Made by a program: the position numbers and the translations under genes. A model generated the notes under the pieces. It did not search any database. It saw only the letters and a program-made list of their open reading frames with translations, and had not been told where the DNA came from. Positions 1,200 through 60,609 of a stretch of DNA of 64,000 nt are shown here, piece by piece. This DNA is from Macrostomum lignano (Eukaryota), in contig NIVC01000251.1 of the NCBI GenBank assembly GCA_002269645.1, positions 124,001 through 188,000 on the forward strand, written 5' to 3'. Each line of letters starts with the position of its first letter. Within the stretch, counting starts at the first letter, position 1.

Positions 1200-1758
1200 T
1201 TACGTTACATAGCAGAGAGAATGCAAATTCACAGCATCATCTCCGTGTAATGCATTTGCGGTGCCGCTTCTTGTTTGCCTGCCGTCTGGCGGTCGTAGTG
1301 TAGTTTATCTAGAATTCATCGGCTGATGTTTCAACGGCTGCCATCGGACAGATTAGACAGAGTGTTGCTCTCGCGTTTGACGACTGTCTGCACTTCGGAG
1401 ACACCATTCACTGCTCAGCTTTAATTTGTGCGCCTCGTCGGCCGGCAGACGCGCACACGGCACTCGACAGTCAGCACTGCGTCCTTCCGCAGCTGCCTCC
1501 GCTTGCACGTCCGGCGGAGGCTTCTGGCCTGCTGCTTTTGCTTCCGTGACACTGCGCCATAGGTCCGTCGCTGAATCAGTACTTGTTGCGTGGTTATTGA
1601 AAACGACCCTCGAAGCAGACGGAGAGCCCTTCGTCCCAGCATCAGTTCAGTCGGCGACTTCTTAGTCAGTACGTGATGGATGACCAATACATCAGCAGCA
1701 GCTTCTGAAGCACGGCCACCTGCTGCACCGGCACGCCAGTATGCAGAGTGGTCTTGAT
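1200..1758 (-). pseudogene. Ty3/Gypsy pol remnant, distal part of integrase (left of the Polinton insertion)
   Basis: Minus strand reads ...HHVLTKKSPTELMLGRR, matching the Gypsy integrase YRxTPHxxTxxSPAELxLGR motif. It is colinear across the CTTGAT TSD with the integrase core at 12615+. The left boundary is approximate. Confidence 0.7.
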
Positions 1759-2400
1759 ACTACGTAATGCGCAGATAACGGTTGATTTTGGAGGTGAGGT
1801 GGGTGTCAGAGCCAATGCAAATTCAACGCCTATCTAAATGCATTAGACCTCTTCTAATTGGTCCAGACCCTCATTATGATTCATGTAAGTCATTATGTGA
1901 GATATTCATGCATGTAACTCTCATGTAAATCTAATTATACATGTAATCAGTGTACATTCCCATTAGTACATTGTGTCGTACAGAAGCGACGACCAGTACA
2001 ATATAGTACGCATAATTAGCGCTTCACCGTAGCAGTTGTTGTACGCAGAAGCGCGCGCGCGCCCAGCCCAGCACAATGCAGCATTGGTGTACGCAGAATT
2101 AACTGTCCATATACCAAAAATTGGCAGAATTAACGTGCGCCGACCCACCCCATAACTGTCCATATTATTACTTGTCCATATTTACTGTCCATCCCAAAAT
2201 TGGTGTACGCGCCGAATTGTAGCGCCCGCCCACCCCATAGCTGTTCGATCATACCCAAAATTGGTGTACGCGCAGAATTAGAGCCCACCCTTCCAAGAAA
2301 ATATTTTGTCGCCCCTCACAATTAATTGGCGGCCCCACGCGGAGACATGATGAGTCAGCCGCTGTAAATCACTGCTGTCCACACTGTTATATCCACCCCT
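1759..2400 (+). repeat. Left terminal inverted repeat of Polinton-1
   Basis: Inverted homology to 12121-12614, with indels. Contains repeated (CCAAAA)TTGGTGTACGC-CAGAATT units. Confidence 0.9.
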
Positions 2401-2545
2401 TCCAAACTTCACTCTCTAGAATTCTGCCCTCGTCGACACTCCGAGACAATTACGTCATCCCCCAACCCCCTCTCCCAAATAAGTTTTCAAAAGGCGTATA
2501 TATATATTTACACAAAAAGCCGGCCGAGCTTTGATACGTATATAT

Positions 2546-3196
2546 TTATTTAGCATACACAATTGGGTGACGACCCAAAACGTTTGAATAATAGCGAGCA
2601 GGAGCATTTTGCAAACAGTTTACAATCAAGTATGAGTAGGGGTCGCGAGTAGCATCCTCATACGTTTTGACAAAACTTTTTGGATTAGTGGGGACCAGCT
2701 GCCTTGCAATATGAGACACTGTGCTGGCATCCCATACATTGCGGAATAAAACAAGGTAGTTCGAATTGAGCGACTGAGTTCGGTGCTCCTTACCCTTTGC
2801 AAACAGGTTTTGCACAAGATACCAAAGTCGGAACCCCACGTGGGAGACTTTGCGCGTGAAAAAAGTTGTAAAAGCGCCACTCTTTTCCATGGCATGCATT
2901 TGGTCGTCGACGACAAGCAGAATATTTGGTTCAGGGACATATTGTTCAGGATCAAATGTACACGAACGAAAATTTACAGGGTACGGCAATTCAAACAGTT
3001 CAGGATCCGGATAGTGGCCAAACCAGTCTACGCGAATCGGCTTCGGATCTTGAAAAAATTCTTGTCTCAATAGGTTTTTCACAAGTGTGGTCTTGCCGCT
3101 TTGAGCCACCCCAGCAAAAATTGCCGACGTTTTGGGGGCAAATTTTAAAGAGTCGGGGTCTATTGTTTGATACATTTTGATAGGCAGCCCAATCAT
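2546..3196 (-). CDS. A32/FtsK-like DNA packaging ATPase
   Basis: Walker A AGVAQSGKTT, Walker B LLVVDD, and FTRKVSH..LVQNLF..RTQSLNSNYLVLFRN, typical of Polinton/NCLDV A32-like ATPases. Confidence 0.92.
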   Translation of the reverse strand: MIGLPIKMYQTIDPDSLKFAPKTSAIFAGVAQSGKTTLVKNLLRQEFFQDPKPIRVDWFGHYPDPELFELPYPVNFRSCTFDPEQYVPEPNILLVVDDQMHAMEKSGAFTTFFTRKVSHVGFRLWYLVQNLFAKGKEHRTQSLNSNYLVLFRNVWDASTVSHIARQLVPTNPKSFVKTYEDATRDPYSYLIVNCLQNAPARYYSNVLGRHPIVYAK

Positions 3197-3198
3197 AT

Positions 3199-4354
3199 TT
3201 ATGGATGATGCTGCTTTATTTGTAGACAGTGATTCTGCACCATCAAGTCGTTCTCGTAAAGATTTGTGCTATAACAGTCGCGCAATATTTTTTCAATTGA
3301 CAGACCCTCCAGAAAGTGTTTTTCAGCCACAAATATTACATGAGCCCCGCAGGTCACACTCAGCGGATGCTGTACAGGATGCCGGTTCATGGCCACCTCC
3401 ACAGGGACATACTTTGCGATCCACAACTTTAATAAATCTGGCACAGGATTGATACACAAGGGGTCAAAAAATGTCACGCTCTCATCGGCATGAAGACAAC
3501 AAGGACGACTTAAGTAGAAGGACGGGAAACCTCGTTTCTTAGAAAATTTTTGAAGGCACTTTTTCCCGAAAAAATACACTGCGGAGATAGGAAATTTTCA
3601 TTTTTTCAGCACAAAAATTGCTATAACTTTTGATAGGAGGCAGATCCAGTGTTGATCTTTTGATATGTTGTGCCTTTTTTATTGCTCTATCGATATTTAT
3701 AAAGCTTTCCGTTCAGAAAATTAGGATTCTATGTTAATTTTTTATTCTACGTATATTTTCATGTGTCTTGTGCTTGAAATACATTAGAATGCCACGGCTC
3801 GGCTCTTTAGCTTCATGAGTCTATTTTATCATTCTTACCCGACTGTGTAGCAAATAGTCGTAACACAGATGATAAAATAGATTCATAAAACCAAATATTA
3901 GAGCTGTGTCATGCATTTTTGTGATTTTTAGATACAGGAAATGTACGTAGAATAAAAAATTAACATAGAATCCTAATTTTCTGAACGGAAAGCTTTATAA
4001 ATATCGATAGAGCAATAAAAAAGGCACAACATATCAAAAGATCAACACTGGATCTGCCTCCTATCAAAAGTTATAGCAATTTTTGTGCTGAAAAAATGAA
4101 AATTTCCTATCTCCGCAGTGTATTTTTTCGGGAAAAAGTGCCTTCAAAAATTTTCTAAGAAACGAGGTTTCCCGTCCTTCTACTTAAGTCGTCCTTGGAA
4201 GACAAATTAAAGCCCAGCGAGTGCCTGGTAGATTGCCAGTGTCAAAGTTAATCACGTATGCAGCAGGATAAACAGGCTGCGGAATCCTATCAACTGGTGT
4301 TACTCGAACAGGGACAGGTAGTATTAGACGTTCTAATATATCTAGACTATTCAT
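3199..4354 (-). pseudogene. Adenain-like (C5) cysteine maturation protease interrupted by a MITE
   Basis: Removing 3500-4197 plus one TSD restores a 149-aa ORF: MNSLDILERL...YPAAYVINFDTGNLPGTRWALICLHADESVTFFDPL...QHPLSVTCGAHV. The expected PGxHW motif reads PGTRW. Confidence 0.85.
3500..4197. mobile_element. 698-bp foldback MITE (hAT- or P-like termini)
   Basis: Near-palindromic along its whole length. Termini CAAGGACGACTTAAG...CTTAAGTCGTCCTTG; 8-bp TSD GAAGACAA at 3492-3499 and 4198-4205. Confidence 0.92.
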
Positions 4355-4373
4355 ATCGGCATGAATATGGTCG

Positions 4374-5686
4374 TTATTCGAGAATAAAAAAGAGATGTTT
4401 GTTTCTACACGAGTCTAGAATAACCTGACGACCGCGAGTGATTTGCACAGTATTGTCAAAGTAGCCAAACACCAACACGTTGATTCCTGCGGCCAAGGCA
4501 GCAGAAAACTTTATTTGTAGCGTCAGATTCCCTCGCTCGCGAGGCATGCTATGCCCGCCCAGCTCCATGTCGGGCATGAGATTCCAGGCGAAGAAGCAGT
4601 AGCCAGCTCCATAGTCGGAATATGATACGTCAATATCCAGGTCCCGATTCATCTTTCCTAGGCTTTTTAGTAGCATGGCATACTCGCGAGCATAGTTATG
4701 AACACCGAATCGAGGAGTAAACGGTTGTCCACACAGACTGACTCCGTCCTTATACAGAGCGACACTGTCGGCACCAAACGGTTCAAAATTAAACGGGTTA
4801 TGTGTAGCCACACCGTTGTATGCGCCGCTGTTCACCATGCCAACAACCACTAGTTTAGGCTTTTGTTCAGGAAATATATTGTTGATTGACATGTCCCGAA
4901 CACCGCCAGCCACTGAAGTATTGTGCACAACAAGTCGCTCAATCGGATAGATTGCATTCTGTTTGCCTAGTTGTTCTTCAATCTCCAATGCCAATTGGGG
5001 GTTTGCCTTGACGCGGCGCACATGTAGTTTGGCACTCTCGAGTACCAGCCGCGCATCAACCCCGTCCGCGTGGTTTTCCAGAACGAAGCCGGAATTGTGC
5101 ATGGTCAGCGTAATTACCATATCAGTGTATGGCAGTAGCATTCGGTCGTTGGTAACAAAAAAGTCTAAACTAAGAGGTCCATAAAGGTGAAAGGTGCGTG
5201 AGTTTGCCGCCATCGCCTTGCGGGCTACAAAGCCAGGATTTCCAACCACAGCCATTTGACCTCCAGCGTCCTTTGCGTAGCCCATCATTCTCAGTTGGTT
5301 GGTTTTTGAATCGTGTCCGTAATTCAAACACGTGCGAATATAGGCCTTGTAAGCGTGGTTGTTATTGCTCGACTCTACGTGTGTCCCGTTGATTGTCAAC
5401 GTGACGTTTTTAAACATGCTTTCAAGGACGTAATTGACCGGCGCAACATTCGAATCAGCAGCAAGATTTGTACCATTAGACTGCTTAACGCGGGCCTTAA
5501 TCTCGAGGTCAATGTCGTTAAGATCGATAAACGTCTCACCACCAACAATCCTAAATTCGACCACGCTGGCATTTTCAACACTGGCAACAGGGTGAACTTC
5601 TTCAGTGGTGCGCTAATTGCAGCAATTTGGTGTGCGCGAGGAGCAAATAGCTCGAATTCCGACTTTGTACACAGGCACTCAGTCAT
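4374..5686 (-). pseudogene. Major capsid protein (double jelly-roll, Polinton/adintovirus hexon-like) with one frameshift near 5612
   Basis: N-terminus MTECLCTKSEFELF (Polinton KSELDLF motif) is in one frame; the 396-aa body (EEVHPVASVENASVVEFRIVG..., PKLVVVGMV, NPFNFEPF, YCFFAWNLMPD) is in another. One missing base restores the frame. Confidence 0.85.
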
Positions 5687-5729
5687 TTTTCTTTCAACAG
5701 CGGCTTAGTGTGGTGCTCTAATAGACAGA

Positions 5730-6098
5730 TCAGTTATTGGCACGGGTTTTTTTATTTATAGAGTCGAAAATATCAGAATGCTGCAGTCTTTTTCTCGTTT
5801 TTTTGTTAGTCATCTTTCTTCGTCTTTGTCTGCCGCTACCTCGTTGTGCGACTGTGTCCTTGAAAGCATCTTTAGCTGCCTGGACAGAGTTACGCAATGC
5901 CGCTTCTTTCAAGTTCCCGCCTTGATCGAGTGTGTCGCTAACTGTTGTAGCTAGGGCTCGTGTTCCGTGGCGAAGAATATTTTTGCCAAAACTCTTTAAA
6001 ATTGGCAGGGCAAATCGGGCAATGCTGCCAAACAGGCCGTTGCCGCGCTGTGCACCGGAAAATACCGGTAAAGCTCCTCCGATCAAGATTGAAGGCAT
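5730..6098 (-). CDS. Small basic putative virion core/membrane-active protein with adenain-type cleavage motifs
   Basis: LIGG^A matches the adenain (M/L/I)xGG^x consensus. Also QRGNG and QRGSG motifs, an amphipathic FGSIARFALPILKSFG segment and a basic C-terminus. Lies between MCP and penton. Confidence 0.6.
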   Translation of the reverse strand: MPSILIGGALPVFSGAQRGNGLFGSIARFALPILKSFGKNILRHGTRALATTVSDTLDQGGNLKEAALRNSVQAAKDAFKDTVAQRGSGRQRRRKMTNKKTRKRLQHSDIFDSINKKTRANN

Positions 6099-6138
6099 AT
6101 TGTCGATCAGTTGCTACCTTTTATTCGTGAAAACTTCT

Positions 6139-7296
6139 TTATTTATAGCTTAATTTCACGAATGTTGATCGATAAAACAGTTTTGCCTCGAAGAATCGAT
6201 CCATTAACTTGCCCATATCGTCACAGATTTGCACCTCAATGGTTTTGAATGGGTGTTTCACCAACGGTAAGTAGGATGGATTGACAAACTCGTAGTACTC
6301 TCGTTCGCCGTATACCTTTTCATTCAAAGGAATTGCCCCAAGCAGGGGGACTTTGACGTCTCCAACAATGGCAGAGTCGACAATATTTGAATAGATGTAC
6401 ATAGTTTGTACACCATTTGTTAAATCGATTGGTCGTTTAGCGGTCTTTGGAGTTTCATTGAAAACATCTTCGCGAAAGCCGAGAATGGCAGCAAGCTCTC
6501 CAATGTCGAATAAAATGTTTTCAATGGGTTTGTACTCACACCGGTTCAGAAAAGGGTTGTAGCGGAATGCATCCACTCTCGTCGCTGGACTTATTGGGAG
6601 CTTTGAAACGACGCCCCAAAGCGCTCCATTAACATAATTTAAGAGCTCATCAGGCGTGCGGTAGAATCCTTTAGCAATCCGCAGTGACGTTCTAGAAGGC
6701 CAGACACTCTTTTCAAACGTTAGAGTCATCGGACTCTCTATGGAGGAGGAGGACTCCAATTCTATAGCGAATACTAACGAATTTCTTGGGTTTAATAAAA
6801 AAGTCGTTACTTCGATATTTGATTTATTTCCAGCGTCATCAACCTTTTTAAACATGCTACGCACATTACTGGACAGCCTAATGTTCGCACCATACCATGA
6901 TTTGTTCACAATTGAAATTTGGCCTTCCTGTGAACGCTCAATGCAAATCATCGCATTATCGTCTTGCTCATATTTTAGATCGGCGATGATTGCATCAACC
7001 ACTTCGTTGGCTGTTGATAGCCCCGCGGCGAGAGAAACCGACGCAAACTGTTTATACGTGGAGGCGGGTTTTTCTCTCACCTCAATGTCAATCACTTCAT
7101 CCTCGGGAGCGTTGGTCAGGACATCAACCATTCGATTATCGGGGACGGTTTTGAATTCTTTACAAAAGTAGATCCGTTCGATGCAGACTTCATGATTCGG
7201 AAAGTGGAGGGTGTCGGGCAAATTAATGCTATAATGTGCCGAATTATTCTCAGGATAGTGCTCAACGCACGCATTGCTAGGTAGGAATAGATGCAT
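6139..7296 (-). CDS. Minor capsid protein (penton-like)
   Basis: N-terminal LFLPSN..YPENN..YSINLP and C-terminal MYIYSNIV..VGDVKVPLL..NPSYLP..TIEVQICD, characteristic of Polinton minor capsid proteins. Confidence 0.85.
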   Translation of the reverse strand: MHLFLPSNACVEHYPENNSAHYSINLPDTLHFPNHEVCIERIYFCKEFKTVPDNRMVDVLTNAPEDEVIDIEVREKPASTYKQFASVSLAAGLSTANEVVDAIIADLKYEQDDNAMICIERSQEGQISIVNKSWYGANIRLSSNVRSMFKKVDDAGNKSNIEVTTFLLNPRNSLVFAIELESSSSIESPMTLTFEKSVWPSRTSLRIAKGFYRTPDELLNYVNGALWGVVSKLPISPATRVDAFRYNPFLNRCEYKPIENILFDIGELAAILGFREDVFNETPKTAKRPIDLTNGVQTMYIYSNIVDSAIVGDVKVPLLGAIPLNEKVYGEREYYEFVNPSYLPLVKHPFKTIEVQICDDMGKLMDRFFEAKLFYRSTFVKLSYK

Positions 7297-7330
7297 TGTA
7301 ATATACTACACGTTTCGAGTGTATGTGTGT

Positions 7331-8404
7331 TCATCCTTGTCTTATATTTATAACTTCCTCAACTGGTACAAATGCATTGAACGACTCGGGATAGCCGCGC
7401 CAACTAACGAAATGATGAGCGACACCATTGATGATGACATTGCGACGCAGAATTTTGTCTATAACAAAGCGGTCCGGTCGAACCGTCTTTGAAAGTTCAT
7501 TATAGTAGAATCGACCCTCGATTTGTTCTCCAGATAGGTCGGAAATGCGATAAAAATGAGGCGGTCCCGGGCATACTTGAGACACAACGTAAACTTCTTC
7601 GCTGTACATATCGTATGCTTCCTTGTCAAAGGCTCGACGAGATTTTGAAATTCTGACAAAGTCCCCTTTTTGGTAAACTGGTTCATCATATTCAGGATCC
7701 TTGTAGAGCTTTTCCCACAATTCTTTTTGATTGTGCAGACCGACACTCGAAGGTTTCATATCAATAGTAGAGTGTACTGTGTTGTTGTAACTTTTAACCA
7801 ATATTGGCAAATAGTCGATCCAACGCCACGTGTTTTTATGCTCAAAGTAGCGAGCTAAACGTTTTCGGAGAGTCCTAATCAGCCTTTCAGCCATATTTGC
7901 CTTGTATACAGAGTTTGTACTGTACATTTTGATATTATGGGCTTTCAGTAAGTTCTGCATGCGATTGTTATAAAACTCGGTACCTCGATCAACGTGTAGA
8001 TATAAAGGCTTAATGGGGAAGTCTTTGATCATGCTTTCAAAAGCCTTTGGAGTGTCGCTTTTCAATTTTATTGACTGACAAAAAGCCAATTTACTAAGCA
8101 CGTCAATTGCAACTAGAATATATCGATGACCATCATTCCATTGTTCGTATCGCGACATGTCCATCAAATCCGCTTGCACAGTTTCCATGAAGCCTCCCGA
8201 CATTACTTTTCCGGTTCGGAATTTTCTTTTAACCCTCTTGTGCCGGGTGTAGCTCGATTGGGTCTTCAGCCATTCGTCGGTTTGGCGTCTCGTCAGGGAG
8301 GGGACCAGCCGTTTGGCCTCCTGATATACACGGGCAGCATTTGTAAAAGCGGCGTCCCCCTGTTCGTACACTCTCCGAAGAGCGGTTTTCACCCTCATTC
8401 GCAA
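7331..8404 (-). CDS. Retroviral-like (rve) DDE integrase with C-terminal chromodomain-like region
   Basis: QADLMDM, AIDVLSK, HVDRGTEF, AERLIRTLR; C-terminal IDKILRR..FVSWRGYPESFN. Open frame of 357 aa. Confidence 0.93.
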   Translation of the reverse strand: MRMRVKTALRRVYEQGDAAFTNAARVYQEAKRLVPSLTRRQTDEWLKTQSSYTRHKRVKRKFRTGKVMSGGFMETVQADLMDMSRYEQWNDGHRYILVAIDVLSKLAFCQSIKLKSDTPKAFESMIKDFPIKPLYLHVDRGTEFYNNRMQNLLKAHNIKMYSTNSVYKANMAERLIRTLRKRLARYFEHKNTWRWIDYLPILVKSYNNTVHSTIDMKPSSVGLHNQKELWEKLYKDPEYDEPVYQKGDFVRISKSRRAFDKEAYDMYSEEVYVVSQVCPGPPHFYRISDLSGEQIEGRFYYNELSKTVRPDRFVIDKILRRNVIINGVAHHFVSWRGYPESFNAFVPVEEVINIRQG

Positions 8405-8535
8405 CTAGATTCGATGCACAGCATGAGTAATTACACTTGAACTCCACAGACGGTTTGTCTGAGCAAAGCTTTGAAGTTACAGCTGCGGCACCCATGATCC
8501 AAAAACAGATTATAAATCATGAAAATGATTTCTAT

Positions 8536-9210
8536 TTATAGTTTTTTTAACGTCTCGTATTTTACTGCTGGTTTCTGCCGCCTCTTTGGTTCGCGAAGTT
8601 GGTATGAAGCATGCCTGTAGGCATCGCTGCCACGATCTTCATATTTTTTAATTTCATTCAGGCCACTGGCTTGGTCTTTGTGGAAGTCGTTGTAGAAATC
8701 ATTAGTTCCAATTGCTTGCTCGACTAAAAAATCGTCTCGATCCGGATCCGTGCCGACTTCTTTTTTCACACTGACTTCTTCTTGTTGGCGTCGTCCTAGT
8801 AGAGCTTTTGCAATATCTGCCTCTTCGGCCAGGGCCCAAAAAGCGGTACTATATTTTGGGCTTGGGCGGTCGCGCCTTTCATTCGATGTAATCTCCTTCA
8901 ATAGATCGAAAATATTGCTTCCTGGCCAGGTTTTTCCATCAAATACAATTTCCCACGACTTGTTGTACTCCAAATTTGGGTATCTTTCTGTCAGCATGTC
9001 CCAAACACGTTGTTGTCGTTCAGGAAAACGATTACTCTTCTTTTGCTTGATCTGACTTAGTTTATTTTGGAGTTGAGTGTTGTATTCAATGAGTTTTTCA
9101 TATTCTGTTTTGGATGCAATTTCTCGGGGTGCGCCTTGACTTAGTCTATTAAATTCTTCTTCTGGTACAACAACGTATTTATTCATTTTAGCGACCAAGT
9201 AGTCCGCCAA
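8536..9210 (-). CDS. Conserved Polinton-type hypothetical protein
   Basis: 224-aa ORF. KYVVVPEE start and GSNIFDLL motif resemble uncharacterised Polinton ORFs as I recall them; recognition by eye only. Confidence 0.55.
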   Translation of the reverse strand: MADYLVAKMNKYVVVPEEEFNRLSQGAPREIASKTEYEKLIEYNTQLQNKLSQIKQKKSNRFPERQQRVWDMLTERYPNLEYNKSWEIVFDGKTWPGSNIFDLLKEITSNERRDRPSPKYSTAFWALAEEADIAKALLGRRQQEEVSVKKEVGTDPDRDDFLVEQAIGTNDFYNDFHKDQASGLNEIKKYEDRGSDAYRHASYQLREPKRRQKPAVKYETLKKL

Positions 9211-9544
9211 ACAGGCTTGATATTAGCGGTGCAGCAACAGATGCAAGGATGGGTAGAAAACCACCGACTTGAGGATTCGAGAGAAGCATATTCTTCTTCC
9301 TATTTATAGACAATTTTGTGTCTGCCAATTCACGCAACGATCTTCTGTATCGCTTTAATCGCAGATACTGTTTCGGAGAAAGATCGATATTTCCCCGGAG
9401 CACGTTGTGACTCAATTCACAGAGACAATGAATCAGTTCCTTGCCTGCACCTCGAATAATGGCCCGCCGAAGAGTGGGACGGGCTTTGGCGAGCTCTGCG
9501 AGCTCGCCGCGACAAGAACATAGTCTGGAGATTCCGTTTGTCAT
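9188..9544 (-). CDS. Small basic protein ending in QVGG^FLPIL amphipathic peptide (putative protease-matured virion protein)
   Basis: CELSHNVLRGNI..KRYRRSLRELA..QVGGFLPILASVAAPLISSLFGG. The start at MTNGIS is assumed; the ORF track extends to 9634. Confidence 0.6.
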   Translation of the reverse strand: MTNGISRLCSCRGELAELAKARPTLRRAIIRGAGKELIHCLCELSHNVLRGNIDLSPKQYLRLKRYRRSLRELADTKLSINRKKNMLLSNPQVGGFLPILASVAAPLISSLFGGLLGR

Positions 9545-9681
9545 TTTGTTTAGCAAAGATGTTGTTGCAGTGCACCGCAATTTATGCACAATATATTTAT
9601 AGACAATTTCATAGCAGCTTGTACGTACATACAAATTCGGTACAGTGGTAAAACAGTAAAGTTACGCAACAGCTACATGGA

Positions 9682-10160
9682 TTAGACATGCAAAACGCTA
9701 GTCACATGATCGTACATTTGACAGAGCTCTTTAAAGTTTCGTATTCCAAGGAAAACAAGGCGGCCATTCTTTCCGCATAATAAACATTTAGCATTGCGAA
9801 ATGGAGACTTTATTACTATTCCATTGAAAACTTCACACTCCCACTTCACCCAGCGGGACCCGGAGTATGCAATTTGGAAAAAGTTTGGCCATCTGTCTAC
9901 TTCAGCGCGGTAAGTACTAGTGGTAACAACAACAGAAATTGGTTTACATTGAGGAAAAAGACGCAAAACTTGGTTGATGAGCGACAACCGAATACAATTG
10001 CAGACAAAGAACGCTGAAAAAAGTTGATTGTACATTTTCCTATTCGCAAATTGATAAGAGCTCTTGGTCTGCGAAATGTCCGTGCGCTCGCCCAGTCCAA
10101 GTCAGGCATGCGGCTCCATTTCGCGCAAAACACTCGGTTCACACACTCGACGTTCTGCAA
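9682..10160 (-). pseudogene. Divergent TATA-binding-protein (TBP)-fold gene, frameshifted near 9980
   Basis: Repeat 1: [14 protein letters not shown] and ALINLRIGKCTINFF..AIVFGCRS align with TBP NIVSTVNLGCKLDL and AAVIMRI..TTALIF..MVCTGAKS. Repeat 2: [43 protein letters not shown] aligns with [43 protein letters not shown]. No in-frame ATG at the 5' end. Confidence 0.65.
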
Positions 10161-10179
10161 GTAGATTTTTCGGCAGTTT

Positions 10180-10890
10180 TTACTTTCGTATCCTTCTTGG
10201 GGCTTTCGACCGCTTCTTTGATTCGTTGGCTGCTACTAGTTTCGATTGATGCTGTCGCTTTCTGGCCTGATTTTTAGGCACCTTTGGCTGCTTCTCCTTG
10301 ACAAGCTTTGGTGGTTTCTTTGCTTTCTTGCTTACTTTCTTGGCGCCTACCTTGATTTTTGGAGGTGGCGTCCAATAGCAACGATCGAATGCCTGTTTGG
10401 CTTCTTCGACAAACTGTAGCTGTTGAATTTTTGGCATTGCGGTCAAAACAGCGTCTCGAATCACGGCCGTGTCGAGAGTAAACAGAATCCTGTAGTAGCC
10501 GCTCTTGTTTTTGTAATCCTCTACAGGCAGTCCGTTTTGGTCGTACATTTTAAAGTCGTGAGCCAGCCCAAACGCTGCACTGTCACCTCCAAACGCTGGG
10601 TTGTAGCCCAGCAGAGCTAGACTTTCGCTGGAAAGGTGCTCCGCCACAGTGTTGAAAGTGTAGGGTATGCAGCTCTCAATGTGTTTTTGTGCAATGATGA
10701 TGAATTCGCGACCTTCGTTGTCAGTACGCACGCCCTTGACGATCAAAACAGGGACCGCATTGGCCAAGTAGAGAGGTCCCTGTTCGTCATATTCAATGTC
10801 AAACGTTTCAACCCCGTTGAAGCTCGGACCTCGCGGTTTGAGTGCCAGCAGCTCTCGCTTGACGCAGTTGAAGTCTTGCACTGTCTCCAT
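10180..10890 (-). CDS. Hypothetical protein; beta-rich core plus lysine-rich tail (possible ssDNA-binding protein)
   Basis: Intact 236-aa ORF with a TATATAAG box ~65 nt upstream. Function is inferred only. Confidence 0.55.
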   Translation of the reverse strand: METVQDFNCVKRELLALKPRGPSFNGVETFDIEYDEQGPLYLANAVPVLIVKGVRTDNEGREFIIIAQKHIESCIPYTFNTVAEHLSSESLALLGYNPAFGGDSAAFGLAHDFKMYDQNGLPVEDYKNKSGYYRILFTLDTAVIRDAVLTAMPKIQQLQFVEEAKQAFDRCYWTPPPKIKVGAKKVSKKAKKPPKLVKEKQPKVPKNQARKRQHQSKLVAANESKKRSKAPRRIRK

Positions 10891-10905
10891 GTCTCTTGTC
10901 TGTTT

Positions 10906-11165
10906 AGAAAAATTTGCAGGTACGGGCGCTTGCAGATGCTCCGGGCTGGTGCTTATATACCCGAGAGTCTCAATAAGTTTTTGTTTTAATTACACGATAA
11001 CGAGCTTTTTACAGAGTTGTCGTTATCGAGGATTCCGGAAAAAATGAACCTTTTGTTCCTATTTTCGGGTGCTGGCGTTGGAGGTGTGCTGAAATCCTTG
11101 CTCCAAGTTGCTGGTAGTTCAAGCTTTGGCGGCCTGTTCCTCTTGTGCTTTGGCAGCCAAAAATT
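10906..11165 (-). promoter_or_regulatory. TATA-containing upstream cassette, copy 1
   Basis: ~260-bp direct repeat of 11599-11851. Minus strand GGGTATATAAGCACC lies upstream of the ATG at 10890. Confidence 0.6.
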
Positions 11166-11196
11166 CCAAATCTTTTGTTGCTCCTCCCACGACGGA

Positions 11197-11520
11197 TTAT
11201 TCAGATCTTGATGGTTCCGAAAAAATTTTTTGGCGATGCTCTTCACTTAGTATCGGAGTCAGTAATCTTTCCATTCGTGCTAAATCAGCTTTGAATCTCA
11301 TTTTGTCCCGTAGTTGCTCATTTATCCTGGCTGCTGCGTAGTCTTGGCTGTCGTAGGGGCCTTGATCAATTTCCTCGACCTTGGCATTGAAGGTGACTAA
11401 TCGCTCGGAAATCGGTTTGCTGTGGCAAATGCACAACCAGTCAGCAGATTTTTTCAAGGCCTCATATTCGTCTTTTTTCTTGTTCGATAATAGGGGGTAG
11501 TCTCTGGAAATCCAGCTCAT
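11197..11520 (-). CDS. Hypothetical protein (107 aa)
   Basis: ATG-initiated ORF directly downstream of TATA cassette copy 2; no recognised motif. Confidence 0.45.
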   Translation of the reverse strand: MSWISRDYPLLSNKKKDEYEALKKSADWLCICHSKPISERLVTFNAKVEEIDQGPYDSQDYAAARINEQLRDKMRFKADLARMERLLTPILSEEHRQKIFSEPSRSE

Positions 11521-11598
11521 TTCTCGTCAAGCACTTGCTGCGTTGTTCGCACTAGTGGTGGGGATGTTATTCGAGCTTGAAAAACTGCCGAGAATCCG

Positions 11599-11851
11599 AG
11601 AAAAATTTGCAGGTACGGGTGCTTGGTGCCCCGGGTTGGTGCTTATATACCCGAGAGTCTCAATAAGTTTTTGTTTTAATTACATGTTAACGAGCTTTTT
11701 ACGGTGTTGTCGTTATCGAGGATTCCAGAAAAAATGAGACTTGTACCTATTTTCGGTGCTGGCGTTGGAGGTGTGTTGAAATCCTTGCTCAAAGTTGTTG
11801 GCAGTTCATGCTTTGTCGGTCTGATCCTCTTGTGCTTTGGCAACCAAAATT
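11599..11851 (-). promoter_or_regulatory. TATA-containing upstream cassette, copy 2
   Basis: Direct repeat of 10906-11165 with the same TATATAAG box. Confidence 0.6.
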
Positions 11852-12120
11852 GCTTGTCAAACACTGCGTTTTCCACATGATTGGGTTGTTAATTGAACTT
11901 GGTGAATTTAGATAAACGGCCGAGAATCCAAATTTTCTTATTTATAGTTTGCTGTCTGAACAAAGTTGGTTTGGCATCTTGTCAAACGAGAATATTTCAT
12001 CCATAGAAGTTTGTGTTTTCAGACCTTGATGACGTGTCTGGCTATAAAGTTAGCATTGTGGCTCGACCGGGTTGTTGCGTAACACTGCTACAGGTAGCTA
12101 TAGCGGCCAGCGCAGGGCAG

Positions 12121-12614
12121 AGGGGTGGACAGCGGCGATTTACTGGCTGACTGACTCATCATGCCTCCGCGTGGGGCCGCCAATTTTGTGGGGTCACAGA
12201 CAATTCTGTGCGTACACCAATTTTGGGATGGACAGTAAATATGGACAAGTAATAATATGGACAGTTATGGGGTGGGTGGGCGCTCTAATTCTGCCAATTT
12301 TTGGTATATGGACAGTTAATTCTGCGTACACCAATGCTGCATTGTGTGGGGATGGGGGCGCGCGCGCTTCTGCGTACAACAACTGCTACGGTGAAGCGCT
12401 AATTATGCGTACTATATTGTACTGGTCGCTTCTGTACGACACAATGTACACTGATTACATGTATAATTAGATTTACATGAGAGTATAAATGTCTCACATA
12501 ATGACTCTGGACCAATTAGAAGAGGTCTAATGCATTTAGATAGGCGTTGAATTTGCATTGGCTCTGACACCCACCTCACCTCCAAAATCAACCGTTATCT
12601 GCGCATTACGTAGT
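12121..12614 (-). repeat. Right terminal inverted repeat of Polinton-1
   Basis: Reverse complement of 1759-2400, shorter by internal indels. Confidence 0.9.
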
Positions 12615-14200
12615 CTTGATTAAGCCGTTGTATATGTTACCTGTCGACTCTGCAATTCTGCTGTGGGCACTAGAACGGAGTGAGATGGTGCCTGATGATG
12701 GCGACCGAGCTGAGGAAGTCCGTGAACTCACTCGACGCAAATTAATGCCGTGGTAATAATTCGTCTGAAGTCCCAGCGGATAAACAGGCTGCAACACAGG
12801 CAGTCACGGATGAAGATGCTCTATACGTGAATGATCCTTGGCTATGATCTAAGGCCACTTGAAGTAGAAAACGTGGACTGCGATGAAAAATCGTTGAGAC
12901 TGCACCAAACTTAGCTGCCGGCAGCTCTCCGACGCTGTCAATTTGCAGCTGTCGCCATGGACCCGCTGGTACATGTAGCTCTGTCGATGACCATACGACC
13001 TTGATCGGCTTGAACGCATTCTCGGAAAGGACGCAATCGCTACAGTTCCGCAGGAAGGCCTCCACGCAACGGTAGATTCGCGACGACAAGGCAATGCGCC
13101 TTGACCTTTTGCCAATACCGCAATGTCCCTGATGCGTCTCTGCCAGCACAAGGTCGCGGAAGTTACCTGGGATGATCCTCATCCTCGGCTGGTCATCCGT
13201 TGATGTGGTACCCGATGACTCGCTGGAGTTGATTGTCGCTCTTCGTTGCGTCAGCCAGTTGAATGACTAAGATTGGCTGGGCGCTTCTGGCCAGCACCAG
13301 GTTGATGTCGGACTCACTGACTGTACTTTCAATTGCCACCGTAGCCATAGGGAGACAGAAAGTCGAACTGGACGTTGAGCTTGCTGTGGAGGTAATGGAT
13401 GTTTATTGAAGTCGTAAACAAAGAGTCGCTCAATACCAGCACTTGGTTTTCGGTGAGCTCCAGACGCAGGCCAGAGCCTCCCTCTTCGACACAGAGTATC
13501 GGCGCTCGGTGGTCGGAAAATGACAGGCTAATGTGGCGAGGGCGACTTAGCTCTCGGGTCATCGTCGCTGCTAACGCGGAGACAACAGATTCGTGATCTG
13601 CGGTCGAAGAATTTCAGGCACGGTGCTGATGAGATAAGCCGCTAATTCACCTCTCTAAAGGTGGCCTCGAATTTCGCGTCGCAGTTCCATAGCGCTTCCT
13701 TGTACAAGAGCGCTGTCAGCAACTCGGCGACGTGCAGAGACAGGTTCTTGATGTAGAGCAGAAAGAAATTAGAAAAACCGCGAGAAATGAAGCCAAGCCC
13801 TGCTATATTTCCGGGTGCTTTGAGTTGCGGTATAATGGCGGTCTTGATAGGAAGCCATCAACGCCTTTGGTGCCTTCTAAGTTTTGGGTAAAATTGGTTC
13901 AAGAACACCTGACCAACCTGAAGCAAATCAGTAAGTCTACTTACCTTCTTTCTAAGTCCTCTCAGCAACAACGGTAAATCAGGAGACATTCGCTATTCTG
14001 CGACACAGGTGCACGAATTTATCAAGCACTTGAGCAACAAATTCCAGCTTTCAAGACATATTTAGCAACCGCTTCATCCGTTCAACAAGGGATACTTCAT
14101 CAGCGAGACGATGGATGTGACTAGACACCGATCGGAATCCCAAACGGCGAAGAGCGCTCATTTTGTTGATGGAGGCACCTGCTATAAAAATGCTGGTCTC
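12615..14200 (-). pseudogene. Decayed Ty3/Gypsy pol (RT C-terminus, RNase H, integrase)
   Basis: HHCC zinc domain ETHQGHCGI...CSDC, PAGPWRQLQID, SSEFTDFL...RHHLTP, RT-thumb-like IKNLSLHVAELLTALLYKEALW, and PFGI near 14150. Many stops and frameshifts. Confidence 0.8.
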
Positions 14201-14529
14201 TTGTATAATGAACTGAAGTAATTCACACTCAAAATTTCATATCTTCCAATTAGTTTAAGTCACAGAGGCTAATTGGGACCTTTGAAACTTCACAATAGCC
14301 ATCTGGCCTGCTTAAGGTTCTTCTCTCTTCTCTCCTCTTCTACCATATCTCGTCTCATCTCTCATCTTTTTCAGCCTGGTTCACTTTTCAGGATATTTTA
14401 CGCGTGCCAGCGCAATGAGAGGGTTGGGAACAGAGAAGTGAGACGGGGAGGTCTACCACAGAGGCAGTTGTCTCCCTCACACGTTGCCATGGCTACATCA
14501 GTCAGCCGCAGAGCCGCAACAGAAGCAAG

Positions 14530-15657
<1,128 letters not shown>

Positions 15658-16359
15658 ATTTAGCACACGGGCATTGGTGTGGTAGCGATGCCCCTCCAGT
15701 TTTGCTCTACCAACTCCGCGTGACGAAAATTCATGGAACAGTTTTGATTTTGTTTGCATTTTTCTCCCCGTGTGTGAATTTGAATGAAGCGAGCTTCATG
15801 AGGATTCAAAGTCAGTTTAACATGGGTAAAACAGAGTTTGGAAGATGATGGTGATGAGGACGCACCTTTTTTTCAATCTTAGAACTGCACGTTTTGCTTC
15901 GATGCGCTTTTCCCCTACTGTCAGTAGGCTAGCTTAGGAATCTCTCTCCATTCTCTCATCCAGGCTAAGTTCTACACTAATTTATGCCACCACTATTAGT
16001 TATGATTAATACTCAATGTACTTCTCTTAGGATTCTAATTTTGGATTGTTTACGCATCTTTGAAGGTCAGACTGTCTGGGTCTGAGACGGATTGACCTCT
16101 AGCAGTCTAGACGGGCGACACTAAGTCTGGGAGGAATGGTTTCAACCCCATTCTGACCCCCAGATTTGCGGCTTTTTCACTGTTTTCAGTGATTTATGGC
16201 TGTCTAGCTGTCACTTTTGGCTCCAGCCTGTCTGGGTCAAAGAGGTCTTTCCAGCTTTCTCCCCACTCGCTCTGTTACTTGCTCCTGTTTACTTTCTCTT
16301 GTTTTGCTGTCACTTCTGACGCCAGAGTGTCTAGACAAGTGGCTTTCATTATTTTCTGC

Positions 16360-17970
16360 GCATGATTTATGACGGCACATGTCATCTTCCCTGGGGTCTG
16401 AAGGCCACCTCGTGGGTGGGTTTTGGGGTCTTGAGCTCAGCCAATCAGAGTCGACCTGACTGCCCCCGGCTCGACCAATCAGAAAATTCGGCGCCTATTT
16501 TAACAAAAGCTCTCAGCCAATCGGAAATTTCGGCGTGCGTTATAACAAATCGGCCGCGTGGGAGCTATAAAAGGCGGCAACTCGAACCGCGCTCGAGACA
16601 CTTGTTGTTTTCTCACGGGACTTTTGCGAACTGTTCTGTTACTCACTGGCCTTTGATGCCCGGTTTTTGTCCCTGCCAAGGCCTTCTGGGGCGCTCGACT
16701 TGGCCGGATACTGCCTTCAGGCTCTTCCCCCTTGCGATCCTGCCGACCTGATCCTCCTTCCCCCGGCAGTTTCGGCTTCAACAGCTAAGTTCCCCCTGAG
16801 AAGCATCATCAATATCTCCCGGCAGTGATCTAAGAACAGCAACGACAACCGGCAAGTGAAGAGCAACAGCGTCACGCGTCAGTTAAGATCAGCAGCAGCA
16901 TACCATCTGAGTGCTTCGGTCTCTGTGGATTCCTTGGCCACCGGCAGATATGTCCTCTGATTGGTTTGGTGAGAGGCTCTCTTGACCTGCTTAACTGAGT
17001 GCACCCTTTGTCTGACCCCTTCCTAGGTAGTCTGATAGGATTTGCACTTTTGGTTACTTGCTTTTGTGTGCCAATCTCGAGGCAGAAGTGTCAGTTAATA
17101 TTAAAAGTAGCCATTTGCTCTAACTCAATCTAAAGTGTCTAGGATTGCGGATTAAGTGAGAAAGTTAAATCTGGAAGTTAAAGACAGCATTTTCTTTCTT
17201 TTTCGCAATGCCAGCTGAAATGTGCGGCTAAATCTAGAGGCAGAGGTCACGGTGGACCGGAAGCGGCACAGTTCCCAGTCAATCAGTCGATCTAAGAAAT
17301 CATTATGTTAAGCATGCAAATTAAGTGCCAGACTGGCGCTTTGGCGCGGTCACAGGCAGTCAAGCGGCTAAAGTAAGTTAAATATTAGTCTAAAGATCTC
17401 CGAAAGTGACAATGCATCTACATCATCGCTATCTGTCGACGTGTTAACACATTTAGTGCCATTAGAGTGCAGTTACGTGTACTTTTACATGTACTTCTGG
17501 GAATTTGGTAAAGAAATAGTACATTTAGTAGTGTATAGAGGCCCGCCAGCGCAAGAACCCCCTGCAGAAGTCCTCTCTGTCCCTGCATGGCCAATGCGAT
17601 CTTAGTCCCAGCAGCGTCCCTTCTATTCGGCTATGACTTCGAGATAGACAGCTAAAAGACACTAGAGGCAGGTAAGTGCAGTGCCCCTCTAGTCGCAAGT
17701 CCGATTTCGATAGCTCCGGTTTGGTGAGCCGGGGCGCACGGGCTGGTGGCAGCGGGTTAGTTAATCTGCGGATTAGCTAATCTCTACCTTTCAAATTCTC
17801 CCTGCTTGTCTCTCGCTGTCTTCTCCTAGCTATAGGACCTTGCTGCTCGCCCACAATCTAGCTACCATGGGGCTGACCATCTGACAGGAGTGAGAGGCCA
17901 GAGTTCTAAGTGATTCATTTCTGAATTCTGAGGCCCGAAGCCATGGGCTTAAAAAGGCCGAACCCATCAA
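16360..17970 (+). repeat. Non-coding interspersed repeat copy A (promoter + intron; LTR/leader-like)
   Basis: Homologous throughout to the reverse complement of ~61480-62950. CCAAT boxes at 16441, 16475 and 16517; TATAAAA at 16566. Confidence 0.75.
16439..16572 (+). promoter_or_regulatory. Triple CCAAT box + TATA Pol II promoter
   Basis: AGCCAATCAG, ACCAATCAG and AGCCAATCGG, then CTATAAAAG. The arrangement is conserved in copy B. Confidence 0.65.
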
Positions 17971-42350: not shown

Positions 42351-44046
42351 TCATTTGTCGCACAAAGCTAATAAACGCTTCTGTTCATTTACCTGTGCTA
42401 CAATACCGCCTGTAGAAAATAGGCGCTGAAATCTAACGAAATCGCAACAGGTAACAAACAGATAAGACAAGGCACGAACTCTACTCACGGCAGTGTAGTA
42501 CAGACCTGCTGGCGGCGACTTGCGACTCTTGCCCAGCTGTACAAACGCCTTGTCAATTGTTAGGCCTTGCGACTTGTGAATAGTGATTGCCCAGGCTAGC
42601 CTCAGAGGAAACTGCTGTCTCGACAAGCTGGCTCCTCGCTGAAGCCACTGGCTTGACACTGGTAGAATTGGCACAACAGAAACTGATGGTGCACACTCGC
42701 TGCTACTACTACTACTGCCATCTTCTCTGGGCAGCCGCGTGGCTTGCATTGCCGGGCCATTGTAGCGCTCGAATTCAACCCAAACGCAGTCGGGCAAATC
42801 GTTTGGCGGCTTCTTTCCATTCGCATAGCAGATGCCACGAACCGTTCCAACTGAGCCATTCGCCAAACCATTTTGCACAGATAGATTCCGAGTCAACATC
42901 ACGCGGGCTCCAATCGCCAGAAATAGTCGCCTTGCTAGACCTGTCTCTGTTTTCTGCTTGCTATTATTAGCATTGTTGCCAGTCAGCGGTTGCCTTCCAG
43001 TACAAGTTGCATTGATTATCCGCACCGGATTGTTATCATCGACAATTTTTCGCAGCTCCTCACAGTTTGCACTAGACACATCTTCATTTGTGTGGTACAA
43101 TAGCGTGCATTTGCCATCAACATCTAGCGGTAGCATGTCTGCAGCTGCTACTTGACACTTGTCCATTACAGTCTTCCAAATGGCCTCGGTTACTTTGCCT
43201 TCGCGAAGAGACTCTAGAATGCTGGCAAACTCTGTGTCATTTGCTTGACGCACCTGCTTGTTTATATAAACGACCGTTTTGAAACTCTGGTACACTTGAT
43301 AGCCAATCGTTGTCAAATTATCTTTAGCATTCTTGTTAAACACATACAGCTGTTTGTCTTGCACTGGTGGCAGCTGAAACACATCGCCAACCAAAATGAT
43401 TGACCGTCCGCCGAAATATACTTCTTCAAGCGTGTCCCGCTTCTCCTCAGGAAACAGTTCGCACAGACGATTGTGCACCTTGGCCAGTGTCCTTTGGCCA
43501 ACCATGCTAAACTCGTCAATGATTATGTAACGCACATTTGACCATAACGATTGCATGTCTGATAATGCCTTGCTGCTGCCCGAAGTCGTTGAAACCGTCA
43601 GCATTAGTAGTACAGGCCGTAGTCGAAAACTTTACGTTCAACTTCAAAGCTGAATGCAGTGTCTCGCCAGCAATGTTGAACGCAGCCACACCAGTCGGTG
43701 CCAATACTTTGCACTTGTCCTCGTCAATCAATTTTCGTAGTGCAGCAATCAGAAAACTCTTGCCAGTTCCAGCGCTGCCATACAAAATTACTCGCAGTGG
43801 TGGAGGCATCTTTCCCGACTCAGTAGTATTGTTAGTAGTCTCACTTTCGGCCAGCCGTTCAAGTTTCAATTGATTGTCAATCATGTTGTAGAGCTTCCGC
43901 TGTCTCTCATTAAGCAGTGAAACGTCAATGGTTTGACGATTAGCCCCTGCACCATCTTCGATGGTAATTCCAGCTACACGTCTAACAGGCTTAGTCAGTT
44001 CGGTCATTAAAACTGCTTTGCCTCTGCCAGACTCGGAAATCGCCAA
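42351..44046 (-). pseudogene. PIF1-family SF1 helicase domain
   Basis: GSAGTGKS, APTGVAA, IIIDEFSMVG, GDVFQLPPV, QFPLRLAWAITIHKSQGLT, YTAVSRV. Confidence 0.95.
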
Positions 44047-44165
44047 TCTGAAGCAGCACTACAATCGAAACCTTCTGGCGCAACTGGCAGAGTATCTTCC
44101 GGATTCTTGTTCACATTCAGCTGAAAGTCCGCATGCCTTGCACCCAGTGCTGCCATCCAATCCTC

Positions 44166-57363: not shown

Positions 57364-57385
57364 TACGATGAAATATATTTCTTCT

Positions 57386-57931
57386 TCAGGGCTCAGATCT
57401 GCCTCCGCTCACCGAAGTGGCTTTGGCTTCACCTGCCCTGACAGCAGGCACTCTTCCCGGATTCATGAAGGTCGTCAGGACTTCCGTCACTACCCGAATA
57501 GCAAGCTGGCTTGCTTCCCAGGCAGTGAGCAGACGTCCCGGCTCGATCTCCATGATCCGGTTGAGTGCCCCGAGAACTACCTCGAGCACGTCCCCTTGAG
57601 TGAAGCCCCTCTCACCGTTTCCAGCAGAAGAGGTGGCGGCAATGTCGGTGTTGGTTAAATCAGCCTTGTTTGAAATCATTGCAGGCATCTTGGTCTTGGT
57701 GGCTACCTCGTCAAGCGGCGCTGTTGATTGGGCGGCAGCGGCAGCGGCAGCAGTGATTGGCAGTGCTGGTTGGACTGGAGCGGCAGCAACAGCTGTAGGC
57801 GGCATTGCTGATTGGACAGTTGCAGCAGCGGCAGCAGCATCGGACGCTTTGGAGGCTTTATTCCTGTACGCAATTGGCCCTAATGTTGGCACCTGATTTA
57901 CAGCCTCCGCATAAGTTACAGGGCCAGGCAT
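57386..57931 (-). CDS. ORF1 C-terminal segment (in frame beyond a single TAA)
   Basis: Same frame as 58016-60250, with 28 open codons between the stop and MPGPVTYAEAV. A SYAxA-like motif typically follows ORF1 knuckles. Confidence 0.6.
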   Translation of the reverse strand: MPGPVTYAEAVNQVPTLGPIAYRNKASKASDAAAAAATVQSAMPPTAVAAAPVQPALPITAAAAAAAQSTAPLDEVATKTKMPAMISNKADLTNTDIAATSSAGNGERGFTQGDVLEVVLGALNRIMEIEPGRLLTAWEASQLAIRVVTEVLTTFMNPGRVPAVRAGEAKATSVSGGRSEP

Positions 57932-58015
57932 GCCAAAAGTCTCTACTAATGATTGGGTAGGTTCTAAATATCTAGACTGAGCTAATTTAAGTTTTAATGT
58001 TTGTACCCTGTGGTG

Positions 58016-60250: not shown

Positions 60251-60609
60251 AAGCCTAGCAACTATAATTTAAATCTTAAAACAATTTAAGCCTTAAAACA
60301 GTAGGCTAATAAAACTTTTTATAAAACTGATTAAAACTATAAACAATATAAGCGACTATACCTACTAGTAGTAGTAGTTTGTAAGTAAAGTACAAGAGAA
60401 GGCCTTAATTATCTACTAACACTAAATTCTATATAGACGAAAAGCCTGGCGCCGAGTTGCAGACGTCGCGCGCGGTTGCAGGTGCCTGGCGCCGCTGCTG
60501 CCGCACACCGCTGAAGTCGCTAGACCGCGCCGCTGCCGCCGCACCGCCGATGCCGTCGACCAGCCGAGACCGAGGTCGCCGAGGCCACAGCCGCCAAGCC
60601 GCAGACGAA

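Follow-up and report, generated by a model that had tools for sequence, protein, structure and literature searches.

A polymerase-less Polinton-type element of Macrostomum lignano carries a diverged TATA-binding protein that may receive its start codon from the host spliced leader and may activate the element's downstream genes

Polintons (Mavericks) and adintoviruses are the described elements closest to the one reported here and, as far as the available text of Starrett et al. 2021 (PMC8502044) covers them, have in common with it terminal inverted repeats (TIRs), a 6-bp target-site duplication (TSD), an rve integrase and, in the present element as probable genes, capsid, protease and ATPase. 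The present element differs in being without pPolB or any other recognisable replicase, and its copies span 9.8–11.9 kb. The TATA-binding protein (TBP) appears for Polinton-like elements as a figure-legend label only, without analysis, in the available text of that paper (preprint 10.1101/697771). Our literature search, with figures, supplements and subscription papers outside its scope, returned TBP in Polinton-like elements only from the Starrett papers and no analysis of a Polinton TBP, and the available part of PMC12220804 holds nothing on TBP. Viral TBPs of another kind, KSHV ORF24 and EBV BcRF1, are proposed in the accessible sections of PMC12529657 to switch on late genes through host Pol II by way of a short promoter word. 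With respect to translation, flatworm spliced leaders (SLs) end in AUG and can start translation (accessible text of PMC9851317, citing Cheng et al. 2006); the SL-AUG-started ORFs treated there are host genes that gain the leader AUG at a UUNYAG acceptor, whereas the candidate described here is a gene of a virus-like element. Addition of a spliced leader to transposon RNAs is described for Hydra in the accessible part of PMC12220107, and a literature search of the same scope (figures, supplements and subscription papers outside) found no gene of a virus-like element started by a spliced leader. The putative leader-supplied start and the polymerase-less lineage are the new parts of this work.

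The window, by which we mean the whole 64,000-nucleotide stretch of contig NIVC01000251.1 that was analysed, holds one copy of the element, with the following parts:

1759..12614, minus strand: whole Polinton-type element, 10.9 kb, no pPolB, ends ACTAC...GTAGT, several genes broken in this copy
1753..1758, plus strand: target-site duplication CTTGAT, 6 bp, repeated at 12615-12620
1759..2220, no strand: terminal inverted repeat, 88% over 462 columns with 12200-12614
12200..12614, no strand: terminal inverted repeat, partner of 1759-2220
10986..11520, minus strand: ORF-A, no family assigned, about 175 aa in sister copies, broken here
10180..10890, minus strand: ORF-B, 236 aa, conserved 180-aa domain and variable Lys-rich tail
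9682..10154, minus strand: TBP-like exon, frameshift near 9,980, no start codon of its own
9188..9544, minus strand: short, basic ORF whose C-end is amphipathic; a relative is found among the ORFs of another Polinton-type element (E 4e-8)
8536..9186, minus strand: conserved Polinton ORF, weak matches (E ~3e-5) in pPolB-bearing elements
7331..8398, minus strand: integrase of retroviral type (Pfam rve E 2.5e-8, over the cut-off) whose C-terminal part is chromodomain-like (Chromo E 0.055)
6139..7296, minus strand: probable minor capsid protein, judged from position and likeness
5730..6098, minus strand: small basic ORF, presumably a core protein
4374..5686, minus strand: probable major capsid protein; in the window copy a frameshift affects its 5' end
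3199..4354, minus strand: probable adenain-type protease, split by a 698-bp insert
3500..4197, no strand: the 698-bp palindromic insert, with 259-nt perfect arms, absent from the four sisters compared
2546..3175, minus strand: packaging-type ATPase, P-loop recognised by eye, weak Pfam NTPase matches

All genes lie on a single coding strand, in the order ORF-A, ORF-B, TBP exon, two small ORFs, integrase, probable minor capsid, basic ORF, probable major capsid, protease and ATPase. Copies throughout the genome end in ACTAC...GTAGT, and exact, mutually different 6-bp TSDs flank six of the eight in which both ends are resolved. The integrase is 34% identical to that of pPolB-bearing elements, and the ATPase is 30–39% identical to the ATPases of other Polintons. 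The probable major capsid protein is without a Pfam match and shows 27–28% identity (E to 1e-40) to the matching gene in pPolB-bearing Polintons; Peptidase_C5 is matched only by the same-position gene of another family (E 0.001), the element's own protease being without a Pfam match. We regard the gene at 4374..5686 (minus strand) as a putative capsid gene and that at 6139..7296 (minus strand), from its position and likeness, as a putative minor capsid gene. A tblastn search for pPolB was negative in 11 of 11 neighbourhoods from the two subfamilies of the element, A and B (some of them cut at one end), and positive in both control elements. The Polinton-like context named in an earlier note on this DNA is supported by TIRs, TSD, integrase and the probable capsid and ATPase genes, with the correction that no pPolB is found: the element behaves as a Polinton but is without the pPolB by which one would be recognised. 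A pPolB-bearing parent of the lineage was not found among the 11 neighbourhoods inspected, the full-length ATPase matches falling from 86% (one 77%) to 39%.

Several further features of the element and of the window were observed. A Fic-domain gene (L031:6884-7690; Pfam E 7e-14) lies at the left end of subfamily B and is absent from subfamily A, stretches partly similar to the palindromic insert flank the element in copies L045 and L046, and window positions 10906-11849 hold a ~690-bp duplicated unit that repeats the TATATAAG promoter and the ORF-A end in subfamily A. Outside the element, the window contains a long tandem array with an 8-nt unit (14387-15800), Helitron-like Rep and PIF1 helicase ORFs (42351-46679, minus strand) and a LINE-like element with reverse transcriptase, endonuclease and a 750-aa ORF bearing a 2OG-Fe(II) (AlkB-type) domain (54505-60268, minus strand). 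Long degenerate inverted repeats ~45 kb apart (16475-17940 and 61520-62860) lie around the Helitron-like and LINE-like genes and are possibly the ends of one large element.

The TBP-like exon had been described in the earlier note as two overlapping ORFs joined through one frameshift. Both minus-strand frames (9897-10232 and 9682-10101) were found, they hold the peptides quoted there, and the change of frame falls near 9,980. The exon begins at 10154, directly after CTTGCAG at 10161-10155, and comprises 157 codons in open sister copies. A DNA search of the same genome gave 40 listed matches among 69 candidates, and 30 sister loci were fetched. Eighteen of these, the intact sister copies on which the note had proposed to check its reading, are open in the same single frame with 154–164 codons from acceptor to stop; the other 12, the window copy among these, are broken (copy counts may include duplicated haplotypes). 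For subfamily B, a protein search returned 21 full-length matches without stops at 78% identity. Comparison of one subfamily A with one subfamily B sequence gave dN 0.139 and dS 2.5 for the exon, and the resulting dN/dS of ~0.06 resembles that of neighbouring genes in one A–B pair. The TBP-like gene is under purifying selection and the gene family is real, with a dead copy in the window. The exon also contains AATAAA at 9809-9814 (minus strand), whose position within the exon is unchanged in all four A and B copies compared; it may serve as a poly(A) signal inside the exon or simply spell V-I-K codons.

Single-sequence searches gave no indication of what the exon encodes: Pfam returned no match for three of three own-family queries, nothing was found among PDB sequences and in the ESM Atlas, and a single-sequence fold reached a pLDDT of 43 and was set aside. 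Five public relatives of the TBP-like protein were retrieved (31–67% identity), known here as proteins only; one of these, P0003 (62–64% identical), scores above the Pfam PF00352 cut-off (24.6 vs 22.9 bits). A seven-sequence profile run against the PDB has TBPs as its first 34 matches (best E 1.5e-6), hhalign reaches 97% with a small alignment of TBPs, two of them from Polintons, and a representative search of 1.8 billion proteins also matched an archaeal-type TBP (E 4.6e-4). AlphaFold, supplied with a natural copy and an alignment without any canonical TBP, returned a domain of pLDDT ~70–90 whose strand and helix order is that of a two-repeat TBP, at ~5 Å rmsd deviation from TBP. Foldseek with this model matches TBP over both repeats (E 6e-9), with 44 matches at E ≤ 0.001, all those listed being TBPs, and VIA-align places TBP at Z 12.6 (159 residues aligned, rmsd 4.8) against Z 6.5 for the next non-TBP; viral TBPs, EBV BcRF1 included, are next among the fold matches. 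Metagenome contigs and viral contigs were scanned for loci related to the TBP-like gene and none was found. Profile, model and fold searches, which the note had put forward as its test, agree on TBP over both saddle repeats, and that the frameshifted ORF is a TBP homolog is virtually certain. A dead remnant or chance likeness, to which the frameshift of the window copy, the 12 broken copies out of 30 and the blank single-sequence searches might point, is scarcely credible given a dN/dS of ~0.06 as for other genes, a confident TBP fold and relatives in other data sets; it is refuted for the family and true of the window copy only.

Residues of the protein are numbered as in yeast TBP, mapped via the host TBP. 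The fold is the two-repeat saddle of ~157 residues of cellular and archaeal TBP (PF00352; PDB 1qna, 7o4i, 1mp9), at 16–21% identity. The equivalents of N69 and V71 are kept in the three members covering them, and those of F116, F190, E186 and E188 in seven of seven. Thus two of the four intercalating phenylalanines (F116 and F190) are retained and two are lost, the F99 equivalent being proline in six of six members covering the site and the F207 equivalent cysteine or threonine in seven of seven. P191, the orientation proline, is asparagine in the family, L114N and T124F are fixed in seven of seven members, and further positions have changed (N159T/S, V161T, V203K and T215L). The basic N-lobe helix 2 comprises ~7 residues in the model, with an alignment gap of ~15 residues or more, the inter-repeat segment is much shortened compared to cellular TBP, and the start codon is absent. 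According to the accessible text of PMC7221094, the two C-lobe stirrup glutamates bind TFIIB, N-lobe helix 2 is the surface for TFIIA, TAF1, Brf and Mot1, and the human TBP mutant at F305 (C.L5.1), the F207 equivalent, has lost activity. With the TFIIB glutamates kept, helix 2 shortened and the DNA face changed, the protein thus appears, as judged from its residues, to have retained the TFIIB side, dropped the regulatory side and remodelled the DNA face; with most of the N-lobe helix missing it would escape Mot1, TAF1 and similar controls.

Viral TBPs differ from this pattern in distinct ways. Herpesvirus ORF24 is large, has its own Pol II-binding domain and all four phenylalanines, lacks the TFIIB glutamates and reads TATTWAA (accessible sections of PMC12529657), whereas the TBP-like protein here consists of the core only, retains the glutamates and has lost two phenylalanines, and is not a vTBP in that sense. 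The TBPs of NCLDVs are likewise divergent and without the eukaryotic N-lobe regulatory signature, and these viruses mostly encode their own TFIIB and vary in the glutamates (PMC7221094, accessible text), whereas here the glutamates are invariant and no element-borne TFIIB was found: a TFIIB family search of the genome gave 13 matches at seven places, none forming a high-copy set.

The lack of a 5' ATG, and CTTGCAG as a possible splice acceptor, had both been pointed out in the earlier note; the first was borne out and the second is supported. Two sites are relevant to how the exon could be translated:

10155..10161, minus strand: CTTGCAG, a splice acceptor of the UUNCAG form that is in phase 0 with the TBP frame; probably used for SL trans-splicing
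10346..10360, minus strand: candidate cis donor AAG/GTAGG, conserved, phase 0 in ORF-B, last exon base 10351

An in-frame upstream ATG is absent in 34 of 35 copies, the exception being a copy with several other frameshifts, and the internal Met of subfamily A is missing from subfamily B. The acceptor is present in 35 of 35 copies, in phase 0, and fits the flatworm consensus UUNYAG, often UUNCAG (PMC12582326, accessible text); the predicted TBP domain begins at the first residues of the exon. The host genome contains 101 copies of a gene that, judged from its anatomy, encodes an SL RNA. Its leader ends in ATG (ATG/GTAAG, the GTAAG donor lying inside hairpin 1), three hairpins (fold z −4.2) and an Sm-like U-run are present, and many copies reside in 1.65-kb tandem units with 5S rRNA. 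The SL RNA genes (L204, L205 and L206 on contigs C794, C3059 and C1214) also include a second type, spaced ~11 kb apart. With a phase-0 acceptor and an AUG-ending leader, trans-splicing would yield Met plus the exon, a stand-alone TBP as in other families, and on these sequence grounds we somewhat favour the host trans-spliced leader as the supplier of the start codon of the TBP-like exon.

Two other routes to a protein have to be weighed against the leader-supplied start. The exon could be cis-spliced to ORF-B through the donor after 10351, giving a two-domain ORF-B–TBP protein of ~337 aa beside the unspliced ORF-B product, a reading we regard as rather doubtful. All 35 copies have donor and acceptor in phase 0 (a phase-0 GT donor that the leader model does not need), with a spacer of 195–206 nt in A and 66–67 nt in B; ORF-B homology stops at I-K-V-[G/R/C] in seven of seven full-length members, which fits a GTNNG donor, and three TBP-like relatives are each paired with an ORF-B relative on a contig of equal size and source. 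A and B nevertheless share many identical runs of at least 13 nt (45 in 6,768 columns), and the invariant 14–15-nt runs at the splice sites were for this reason rejected as evidence by themselves. Almost no linker would separate the two domains, the fused protein is absent among the six public ORF-B relatives (124–413 aa), and the TBPs of other Polinton families read in the genome stand alone. Assembled contigs of four of four runs, whose RNA status is guessed, continue unspliced across donor and acceptor, with no joint across the two sites and no SL or cis junction seen, and none of the six listed of ten loose contig ends lies at 10154; contigs drop rare forms, and a 35-nt leader tip is probably pruned more readily than a 196-nt intron bubble. 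Genome searches for intron-less and for leader-joined retrocopies gave 0 matches each and are uninformative on splicing. Leader start and cis-fusion can coexist: flatworm acceptors are often common to cis- and trans-splicing (PMC12582326, accessible text), so both routes may occur. Without any splicing, translation could begin at the in-frame TTG before the exon or reach it by frameshifting from ORF-B, which we hold to be improbable. A TTG CAG does stand in frame directly before the exon in A and B, the public gene caller began P0001 at that TTG, and unspliced contigs are what is observed. Against this, the TTG lies ~740 nt into the RNA behind five ATGs, and the overlap residues I-S-E of relative P0010, read from protein only, suggest that no TTG is present there; programmed frameshifting is rejected, since ORF-B does not stand in a constant frame to the exon (one offset in 18 copies, a different one in 15, and two copies in frame).

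Family searches with ORF-B gave no family match, a template search for DUF2738 gave no match, and the ORF-B domain model stays below pLDDT 50. A by-eye idea that it is a T7 gp2.5-like SSB found no support in profile and fold searches (hhalign 0.5% with shallow profiles; one PHROG SSB match at E 0.55).

Short TATA-like words precede most genes of the element and fall into classes, as follows:

10952..10959, minus strand: TATATAAG, 69 nt ahead of ORF-B; no TATA word upstream lies closer to the TBP exon
11642-11649, minus strand: second TATATAAG, before ORF-A
9594..9601, minus strand: TATAAATA, before the 9544 gene
9301-9308, 8533-8540, 7345-7352, 6140-6147 and 5753-5760, minus strand: further TATAAATA sites, each before the next start
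11939-11946, minus strand: extra TATAAATA site
3217..3224, minus strand: variant word TACAAATA, 49 nt before the ATPase
4512-4519, minus strand: variant word TACAAATA, before the protease

The word TATAAATA lies 49–142 nt ahead of six downstream genes. Three natural copies carry it 6, 7 and 7 times in their coding strand, where shuffling gives means of 0.16–0.22, and 0 times in the opposite strand. Two pPolB-bearing families have TATAAATA on the coding strand 1 and 0 times and carry YTTAAGAA instead, 7 times each (shuffle means 0.6–0.9); a third, decayed Polinton element has neither word. Promoter words thus differ between lineages that carry different TBPs. The earlier note had taken TATATAAG for the cassette that the protein would bind, but this word precedes only the two left-hand genes and TATAAATA the downstream ones, which makes TATAAATA the more likely TBP target word. 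The TBP exon is without a word of its own and should therefore share the ORF-B transcript, on which we infer both to lie.

We propose that host Pol II would start from TATATAAG and produce a single RNA covering ORF-B together with the TBP exon. Left whole, this RNA would give ORF-B, and trans-spliced at 10155 it would give Met plus the 157-codon exon, so that one promoter could serve either product. The protein would bind TATAAATA and recruit host TFIIB, through its two retained glutamates, and Pol II; loss of the larger part of the basic N-lobe helix would free it from Mot1, TAF1 and host regulators of that kind. Replication of the element's DNA would need a polymerase from elsewhere. That the TBP activates the element's own genes is, on balance, what we expect. 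The suggestion in the earlier note of an element-borne promoter-recognition factor remains the best reading, at the level of inference and with two of four intercalating phenylalanines lost. Its other suggestion, a decoy, would have the protein bind TFIIB or other TBP partners, or occupy DNA non-productively, and so damp host transcription, the element's TATA boxes being read by host TBP. The word TATAAATA is an ordinary, canonical TATA box that host TBP should read unaided, and with two phenylalanines and the orientation proline gone and the TFIIB glutamates invariant the decoy has points in its favour, though we consider it unlikely: DNA-face positions have changed to fixed replacements and are not decayed (L114N, T124F in seven of seven), N69 and V71 are kept in the three members covering them, and promoter words differ among lineages with different TBPs. 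Activation by a leader-started TBP, that is, an AUG likely from the host trans-spliced leader and likely activation of the downstream genes taken together, is a tentative proposal that falls somewhat short of probable. More tentative still is the full scheme of a recently integrating polymerase-less Polinton whose master transcription factor depends on the host leader, in which one early RNA gives ORF-B or a host-AUG TBP, the latter recruits TFIIB to the element's own word, and each lineage has its own TBP–word pair.

A TBP in a Polinton-type element, as claimed by the note, is present here and is not unique, since other Polinton families of the genome carry one. A PF00352 search of the genome gave 330 candidates, of which 150 were scored, mostly high-copy. 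The same genome contains pPolB-bearing Polintons whose TBPs are clearer and begin with an ATG; the ends of these elements read AGTAG, vs ACTAC in the polymerase-less lineage. Other Polinton families (for example C754, with L067 and L068; C84, with L065 and L066; C1769, with L069 and L070) have two-repeat TBPs with an ATG start (Pfam E 1e-19 to 1e-25), along with a PC4-like ORF and, overlapping the TBP, an exonuclease-like ORF. N159T, V161T and V203K are common to all three other Polinton TBPs read, and F99P to two. In a 35-row tree (leaving out L083, L089, L090, L097, L098, L072 and L074 as duplicates or for want of a passing frame, and also L099-L104) the TBP-like family forms a single clade (100/99), whose long branch sets it well apart from host TBP, and recent capture of host TBP is rejected on this ground. 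The family, the other Polinton TBPs and P0007 lie on one side of an 89/92 branch, subject to a long-branch warning, and a common origin with the other Polinton TBPs is suggested by these sequences. The host TBP (L053) and a TLF-like paralog (L058) each read as a single open frame, apparently with no introns in the core.

These findings bear on the timing of capsid gene expression in Polintons and on whether such elements act as viruses. An element-borne TBP with a lineage-specific word means that two TBP types and two words exist in one genome, whose cross-binding is directly testable, and a TBP with two phenylalanines and without the regulatory helix tests the needs of a minimal TBP. For a family that codes for capsid and integrase and has fresh TSDs but lacks a polymerase, the means of replication becomes a question. 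A leader-supplied start codon, if true, would make the element dependent on hosts whose leaders end in AUG, and host trans-splicing would set a switch for a viral gene.
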